Positions 46,126 to 47,050 of a stretch of DNA of 64,000 nucleotides are shown one piece after another. This DNA comes from Eledone cirrhosa (taxonomy: Eukaryota), in NCBI GenBank assembly GCA_964016885.1, contig OZ024744.1, positions 42,284,001 to 42,348,000 of the forward strand. The letters are read 5' to 3'. Each line of letters starts with the position of its first letter. The first letter of the stretch is position 1. Below the pieces are notes generated by a model, which saw only the letters and a list, made by a program, of their open reading frames with translations, had not been told where the DNA came from and did not search any database. The position numbers and the translations under genes are program-made.

Positions 46126-46365
46126 CCCATTCTACTACCCTAAGTATTGAGTACTCTGGTGCATTCCTTACCACACCTCCTTCGTTATATATATATAATA
46201 CAATATGTTGAAAAGATAACACACTAGAGAGAGATAGTACGCTATCAGTCAAACAGGGAACGACCACCAGTGTATGAAATCTATAGCCCATGGAAGGCAG
46301 AGTAGACACACAATAATTAAAAATATAAATTAAAGTGTAAATACATACCTCGATAACTATCTAAC

Positions 46366-46448
46366 ACACACATACAAATCCAAAAAGATCTGTTTCGCCA
46401 AATACGTTGTTGACAGAAATGATTAGCCCATGGTTCATCAGCGTGTGT
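46366..46448 (-). ncRNA. Type I hammerhead ribozyme (left arm of E2)
   Basis: Minus strand: ACACACG-CTGATGA-ACCA..TGGC-GAAA-CAGATC..GATTTG-TA-TGTGTGT. Confidence 0.8.
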
Positions 46449-46675
46449 AAGGCTATACATTTCAGCTATACATGGCTCAGTTAATTTATCGTCATATTTC
46501 GCTTCTTATAACAGTCTTTCCTCTCTCTCTGTTTGGTTGAGCACACTTCTCTGAATGGTTTTGGGCTGCCCTTTCTAGCAGCTCATCCCTCAGACACCAC
46601 AGGTTCACTGCCTTAAAACGCTATGATGGACGGTCACTTTAGATTCTTTTAGAGTTGTCTGAAATGTATAGCCTT

Positions 46676-46758
46676 ACACACGCTGATGAACCATGGGCTA
46701 ATCATTTCTGTCAACAACTTATTTGGCGAAACAGATCACTTTGGATTTGTACGTGTGT
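46676..46758 (+). ncRNA. Type I hammerhead ribozyme (right arm of E2)
   Basis: ACACACG-CTGATGA-ACCA..TGGC-GAAA-CAGATC-ACTTTG-GATTTG-TA-CGTGTGT; 7-bp stem I, 6-bp stem III, GUA site. Confidence 0.85.
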
Positions 46759-47050
46759 GTTAGATAGTTATCAAGGTATGTATTTACACTTTAATTTATA
46801 CTTTTAATTATTGTGTGTCTACTTTGCCTTCCATGGGCTATAGATTTCATACACTGGTGGTCGTTCCCTGTCTGACTGATGGCGCACACTCTCTCTCTCT
46901 AGTGTGTTATCTTTTCTACATATTGTATTATAAAGGGCTCGGGATTCCCTCTCCTTTGAGCACATTTTACTGACAGGGAATAGCGAGTCTAAATATATAT
47001 AACCCATGCTAGCGTGGAAACTGGACATTAAACGAAGATGATAATGATGA

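Follow-up and report, generated by a model that had tools for sequence, protein, structure and literature searches.

The element designated E2, which lies in a 64,000-nucleotide stretch of Eledone cirrhosa DNA (the window; positions below are those of this stretch), is a single insertion of a dispersed non-coding repeat of about 530 nt. Taken together, the evidence makes it quite probable that this high-copy repeat is a retrozyme moved by the reverse transcriptase (RT) of a Penelope-like element (PLE), and that the second of its two opposite-strand hammerhead ribozymes is an accident of insertion.

E2 consists of an inverted piece and a direct piece set between tracts of (TA)n. The left (TA)n target tract (46186–46197) overlaps the outer end of an inverted, 5'-truncated copy on the minus strand (46194–46465), which runs from monomer position 454 back to 182 and ends at the tail-less family end A. 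A circularly permuted monomer of one unit follows on the plus strand (46466–46991), extending from about position 510 round to 507. The sequence of a second (TA)n tract occupies 46993–47001. A PLE-type tail is present at one end only (46933–46991, plus strand), and contains a hairpin (46936–46961) common to the sister families described below. The direct end stops some 27 nt short of family end B. The 'spacer' between the arms (46466–46658) is simply the part of the monomer that has no duplicate in the left arm; at about 46615–46625 it lacks some 20 nt present in other copies. The arms themselves (46194–46465 and 46659–46932) are 94.9% complementary over 274 nt. With 12 substitutions and one 2-nt gap between them, they mark an insertion that is not recent. 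No open reading frame of at least 150 amino acids overlaps E2. At the inversion junction (46460–46471) an 8-nt word found in the arm is repeated, and the word resembles the monomer at that point, which suggests that the junction may be a microhomology jump.

The family is large. A DNA search of the 3.0-Gb genome with E2 returned 2907 candidates, of which 40 were scored, and an exact 18-mer over the core occurs at no fewer than 393 genomic sites, compared with none for a control. Eighty-six loci were analysed: 28 distinct loci picked by BLAST (30 minus two duplicates) and 58 regions picked by the 18-mer, which cover 62 of the first 68 18-mer sites listed. The BLAST-picked loci came from a two-armed query; the 58 motif-picked loci are free of this fold-back bias. 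The resulting alignment (A1) has 86 rows, two of them mis-picked (L011:991–1090 and L029:1529–1628) and kept in the pairing counts. One row labelled E2 in the monomer comparison (L142) is a neighbouring E3-like copy. The monomer has a period of 508–550 nt, as given by 18 tandem junction pairs, and the unit is circularly permuted; a head-to-tail monomer junction is found in 18 of the 28 BLAST-picked loci. The unit is non-coding, carries one type I hammerhead and is joined head to tail, the properties of a non-LTR retrozyme. Its circular fold has a z-score of −3.8 relative to 25 shuffles. Three contig runs, of unspecified kind and from one sample, cover the family and the head-to-tail junction; they are uninformative on expression.

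Insertions of the family share a characteristic footprint. Both orientations occur together in 52 of the 86 loci, every one of them head to head, and the other 34 loci have no inverted piece. Two 3' ends are fixed, monomer positions 454 and 534, which lie 80 nt apart; one or the other terminates 115 of the 144 pieces, with (TA)n directly beyond it in 102 of the 115. Target-site duplication is unreadable inside (TA)n. One end of each kind is found in 35 of the 52 fold-backs. The 5' ends, in comparison, are scattered; two of the 144 fall within positions 268–280, around the predicted ribozyme cut, where a pile-up is absent. The cut site is crossed once by 102 pieces and twice by two of the 144, E2 itself not being one of the two. 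The longest piece measures 888 nt, and none of the 144 amounts to two full monomers. PLE insertions have been described as a partial tandem with an inverted 5'-truncated copy and a tail on one side (PMC8557442, PMC3846280), and the PLE tail in vitro is bounded by two reverse-transcription starts (PMC11167929). Judged from sequence, the layout of E2 is a PLE footprint. The following route would account for it. Since copies continue past the cut site, the RNA template would be either a circle that has been re-ligated or a multimer left uncut. A Penelope-like RT acting in trans would begin at one of the two fixed sites or the other, and each side of the break would be extended. Such initiation and extension would leave one arm with a tail and the other without.

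The two hammerheads are genuine motifs. The sequence-only reading had placed them, with CUGAUGA and GAAA cores, at 46676–46758 (plus) and 46366–46448 (minus), and both positions are confirmed by the sequence and by a strict descriptor. The descriptor finds three motifs in the window, namely the two of E2 and one at 30667 on the minus strand, and none in 100 dinucleotide-shuffled windows. Scanning the window against Rfam (E ≤ 1) gave 26 matches, none of them a hammerhead, and the E2 motif is therefore missed by the Rfam library. The type I hammerhead of the right arm (46675–46759, plus strand) has an 8-bp stem I, in which 46675–46682 pairs with 46752–46759, a stem II of an A.C mismatch plus 3 bp, and a stem III of 6 bp past A15.1–U16.1, two of which are G.U. 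Its core is formed by CUGAUGA at 46683–46689 and GAAA at 46728–46731, and cleavage at its GUA site is predicted 3' of 46751. On the minus strand, the type I hammerhead borne by the inverted arm (46365–46455) includes a pseudoknot strand at 46455–46450 with its loop II partner at 46429–46424. Its core lies at 46441–46435, and the cut is predicted 3' of 46373. All parts of the type I core (C3–A9, G12–A15.1 and U16.1–H17) are present in E2 together with stems I and III.

The finer details of the earlier description fared unevenly. Stem III has the 6 bp given for it, whereas stem I, taken to be 7 bp, is really 8 bp when the terminal U.G is counted. The GUA site of the plus strand holds. The pair adjoining the cut is, in the left arm, G.U and not G–C. 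The report of A–C in place of G–C at 10.1/11.1 was correct and applies family-wide: this base of stem II is unpaired in both E2 arms, and among 96 family pieces it is A.C in 76, A–U in 18 and U.C in two, a mismatch in 78 altogether. The A.C mismatch would make activity less likely and does not exclude it, because an active U–U mismatch has been reported (PMC3088659). The 'long stem II insert' has to be given up, as the 38-nt insert contains just 3 bp after the mismatch. A long stem II was rejected in favour of a 3-bp stem and a loop that pairs with the strand 5' of stem I. Describing the ribozymes as extended rather than minimal was a fair contrast, because coding PLE loci of the same genome carry minimal hammerheads.

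The loop pairing would constitute a pseudoknot. The 6 nt directly 5' of the 8-bp stem I (46669–46674, plus strand) are complementary to the start of loop II, and the predicted partner is 46695–46700. In A1, 94% of the pseudoknot cells are paired, with the variants U.G/U–A and C–G/U.G, and an A–U to G–C change occurs in stem I in 15 of the 86 rows. Within E2 nearly all pseudoknot changes are one-sided, and conservation of the loop strand is inflated because 58 loci were picked by a motif covering the 3' strand. The stronger evidence is cross-family. When one copy of each of five related families (E1–E5) is compared, all have an 8-bp stem I whose adjoining strand pairs over 5–10 bp with loop II at an offset of 3–5, and the in-register pairing has a shuffle P of 0.00015–0.009. 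A second E4 copy (L090) fails the same test, with 1 bp, and three of four further non-E2 copies show pairing in the same register by eye. The predicted pseudoknot, in register in five families, would supply the tertiary contact that links stem I with stem II. Pseudoknotted hammerheads with a stem II of 1–2 bp or with a mismatched stem II are active, and the pseudoknot is needed there for fast cleavage (PMC3088659).

Competing structures are predicted to limit activity. An alternative 9-bp hairpin on the plus strand (46705–46731, in which 46705–46714 pairs with 46723–46731) would sequester the GAAA core; 93.8% of its cells are paired, and covariation is weak. Even without the antisense arm, the active fold of E2 is calculated to lie 7.6–8.8 kcal/mol above the ensemble, pseudoknot energy excluded, partly because this hairpin takes the GAAA core. 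A downstream competitor strand (46834–46853, plus), 83 nt past the cut, is predicted to pair with 46656–46674 and to displace the pseudoknot. The helix has an energy of −20.9 kcal/mol, which none of 300 shuffles equals, and once transcribed the competitor would take 96% of the pseudoknot strand. In E1, E3 and E5 a competitor lies at a similar distance but does no better than chance, being matched by 107, 51 and 62 of 300 shuffles, respectively, and the best duplex of E4 is elsewhere, so that the predicted off-switch is well supported in E2 only. A plausible sequence of events is as follows. The monomeric type I hammerhead would be held active briefly during transcription by the pseudoknot between loop II and the 5' flank. 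The helix about 83 nt downstream would then switch the ribozyme off, and mature monomers or circles would not be cut again.

Two further fold-back elements of the window, E1 (30412–31150) and E3 (61264–62090), belong to sister families. E1 to E5 share the tail hairpin, for which the genome contains 674 pattern matches. The monomers of E1, E2, E3 and E5 align lengthwise, with E2 47–49% identical to the other three. E1 has one complete canonical hammerhead (core at 30667, minus strand) with G10.1–C11.1 and a 9-bp pseudoknot, and 2641 candidates in the genome; it is the leading candidate for an active ribozyme. In the E3 family stem I and the pseudoknot persist along with a very long stem III region, and the core starts with CC or UU in 26 of 28 rows. 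E5 (L251–L270) is abundant, with A at core position 4 (CAGA) in most of 23 rows and the stems and pseudoknot kept. The canonical core is retained in E1, E2 and E4. Cleavage may be dispensable, since E3 and E5 have spread with altered cores.

Three coding PLE families, 81 tail-hairpin loci and 178 family loci were searched for a coding PLE with the same tail or monomer, and none emerged. The three coding families, all abundant (30 loci each), share no tail with E2, and a search for RT and GIY-YIG domains contiguous with the monomer gave no PLE protein match. PLE frames near the tail-hairpin loci L081, L083 and L084 were considered as partners and rejected, as they have their own ends and are separated by a (TA)n gap. 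Another near L179 was discarded because about 370 nt unlike the monomer follow it. The partner was also absent from 51 further tail-hairpin loci.

The window holds several other repeats. A high-copy, 5'-truncated coding PLE (31685–33610, plus strand, or 31685–33055 in a shorter delimitation) encodes an RT and a GIY-YIG domain with a Cys linker and has 42454 candidates in the genome; open frames of up to 1329 amino acids occur elsewhere in the genome. The 3' region of this element contains a minimal hammerhead, and, like the E2 family, the element has more than one fixed 3' end (two or three). A minimal-type hammerhead at 33750–33810 (minus) resembles motifs found where a second family of coding PLEs is located. 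The 3' fragment of a Poseidon-like PLE (about 44960–45650, plus strand) lies some 550 nt upstream of E2, and read-through might originate there. At 60809–61048 a 48-bp unit is repeated in tandem, with four to five copies. An inverted pair at 26800–27822 (183 nt, 95%) adjoins a LINE-like 5' region and a tRNA-like SINE, and the descriptor finds no hammerhead in it.

Editing traces bear on the earlier suggestion that the arm duplex could be an ADAR substrate. Across the E2 family an excess of A>G is absent on the sense strand (135/9929 versus 256/19781 for T>C, p = 0.67), as it is in E1, E3 and E5 (p = 0.82, 0.27 and 0.09). Locus L115 (G000:C1:179908200–179910500) is the sole one of the 86 with a cluster: on the sense strand, 12 of 30 A are read as G at monomer positions 400–534, compared with one of 71 elsewhere in the locus; T>C stands at two of 50. 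Just one of the 12 sites has a 5' G, in keeping with the neighbour preference of ADAR, and eight sites are common to both arms. Successive passes over positions 400–534 differ at some edited sites, and the edited motif has a single occurrence genome-wide. ADAR has been shown to act strongly on palindromic repeats (PMC5625713). By its sequence pattern, the L115 cluster fits an inserted copy of a hyper-edited RNA template. The suggestion is thus plausible for the family on the strength of these 135 nt, although a family-wide signal is absent.

The sequence-only reading went on to propose a functional start-site switch: read-through RNA would be sequestered as dsRNA, whereas RNA begun in the spacer would cleave. 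This is very unlikely. A whole hammerhead is present in both arms of 11 of the 86 loci (six of the 28 picked by the two-armed query and five of the 58 picked by motif), and the spacing between the two is 100–552 nt in the eight loci measured. The dual arrangement requires an inverted piece of sufficient length, and its frequency and variable spacing are as expected from random 5' truncation of the inverted PLE end. Opposite-strand PLE hammerhead pairs 100–700 bp apart were read as truncated PLE ends by Cervera and De la Pena in 2014 (PMC4209133). Because the layout is confined to 11 of 86 loci, is variable in spacing and was already published in that year, the two opposite hammerheads are likely to be a by-product of inverted PLE ends and the 'antisense switch' incidental. 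One half of the proposal does agree with the folding models. In read-through RNA of either strand the ribozyme would be completely buried, the active fold lying 115–117 kcal/mol above the ensemble, and 95% of the hammerhead bases are predicted to pair with the other arm. Burial of this kind holds for any fold-back, and nothing here shows a sign of selection for it. The ADAR-like scars at L115 make it likely that fold-back RNAs of the family were made, and bidirectional transcription of the PLE end repeat (pLTR) has been argued (PMC3846280). The other half is contradicted by the models, in which spacer-started RNA is not simply on: leaving pseudoknot energy aside, its active fold sits 8 kcal/mol higher than the ensemble, and the pseudoknot strand is predicted to be 96% paired to 46834–46853 once that segment is made, so that this RNA too would be off after 46853. 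The 12 substitutions between the arms also count against a maintained device, as does the monomer, which yielded neither an A/B box nor a TATA match on the plus strand. The appearance of E2, with extended inverted arms flanking a short spacer, might recall a MITE with terminal inverted repeats of about 270 bp. A MITE with fixed, symmetric repeats was rejected, given arms that vary in length by locus, 34 loci free of any inverted piece, asymmetric ends and circular permutation, and the reading is barely credible.

Detachment from a larger element offers another explanation. The unit could be the pLTR of an unsampled coding PLE and not an independent non-autonomous family, since it has the same end structure as PLEs and since Xenopus retrozymes are derived from pLTRs (preprint 10.64898/2026.07.22.740005). 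Set against this, the monomer is joined head to tail with itself in the 18 BLAST-picked loci noted above, and at none of the 81 tail-hairpin or 178 family loci does the sequence continue into a reading frame of a PLE, which leaves this origin unlikely. A stronger contender, although still improbable, is a PLE-mobilized repeat whose hammerhead is dead or dispensable, a scaffold kept for its fold (e.g. for enzyme binding) or by drift. The altered cores of E3 and E5, which keep stem I, the pseudoknot and the stem III region, speak for it, as do 5' ends that are not piled up at the cut. Conservation of the E2 core beyond background is also non-significant once subfamily-diagnostic columns are set aside (6/400 versus 538/18548, p = 0.13). 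In addition, core mutants leave PLE insertion in vitro unaffected (PMC11167929), and eight of nine Xenopus retrozymes did not cut (preprint 10.64898/2026.07.22.740005). Other observations favour a working ribozyme, namely the canonical core of E1, E2 and E4, found whole in 28 of the 34 E2 pieces picked by BLAST, and the reported activity of pseudoknotted hammerheads with a short or mismatched stem II (PMC3088659).

By analogy, E2 likely works like a PLE-mobilized non-LTR retrozyme (PMC7229834; preprint 10.64898/2026.07.22.740005; review PMC6765202). With metazoan members of that class it shares a non-coding structured monomer, one type I hammerhead, head-to-tail junctions, high copy number and co-occurring PLEs. 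Its monomer of about 530 nt is longer than the 170–400 nt given in PMC7229834; the preprint has monomers of up to 972 nt. Classic retrozymes are tandem, whereas E2-family copies are of 1–1.7 units with inverted ends and are known here from DNA; the preprint's criterion for an 'active' retrozyme is at least two consecutive complete hammerheads in tandem. EN+ PLE insertions (PMC8557442; PMC3846280; PMC11167929) resemble E2 in combining a partial tandem with a head-to-head inverted copy and a tail at one end, and in having two 3' ends, (TA)n targets and a type I hammerhead in the repeat. Unlike them, E2 has no reading frame, a tail of 80 nt instead of 30–40, an extended instead of a minimal hammerhead, and no coding partner in the searches described. 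The pairs of Cervera and De la Pena (PMC4209133) likewise have opposite-strand hammerheads 100–700 bp apart; those motifs are minimal, dimer-type and G10.1–C11.1, whereas E2 has a full stem III, the A.C mismatch and a predicted pseudoknot. As in the ribozymes of Perreault et al. (2011; PMC3088659), a base-paired contact that joins stem I with stem II replaces loop–loop contacts, stem II has 1–3 pairs and a mismatch at 10.1/11.1 is tolerated. The mismatch tested there was U–U and not A.C, and the present examples are animal mobile repeats with a loop II of 36–42 nt and a downstream competing helix. Among the papers listed by a literature search, most subscription papers being outside it, there was no description of the E2 family or its pseudoknot, and the supplements of PMC4209133, PMC3088659 and PMC8557442 may already list such motifs.

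Hammerheads on both strands are a known by-product of PLE insertion, and alone they give no hint of a new regulatory device. A broader proposal can be put forward tentatively and with considerable doubt. At least five animal retrozymes of about 500–550 nt would share a pseudoknotted hammerhead that acts as a kinetic switch, on for some 80 nt of transcription and then locked off. The locking helix would hold the cut ends for ligation. The pseudoknot would also permit cores off consensus (A.C or C.C at 10.1/11.1 and U4 changes), which descriptors and Rfam miss. L115 may be a genomic trace of elements that move through RNA exposed to an ADAR-like enzyme. What the family offers is a set of natural relatives, a series of hammerheads in which pseudoknots are compensated, bases of stem II mismatched and cores altered. 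Such a series would allow the importance of cleavage for the spread of animal retrozymes to be judged from a small number of assays in vitro. The same series bears on how a ribozyme competent as a monomer may stay off in its own circle.
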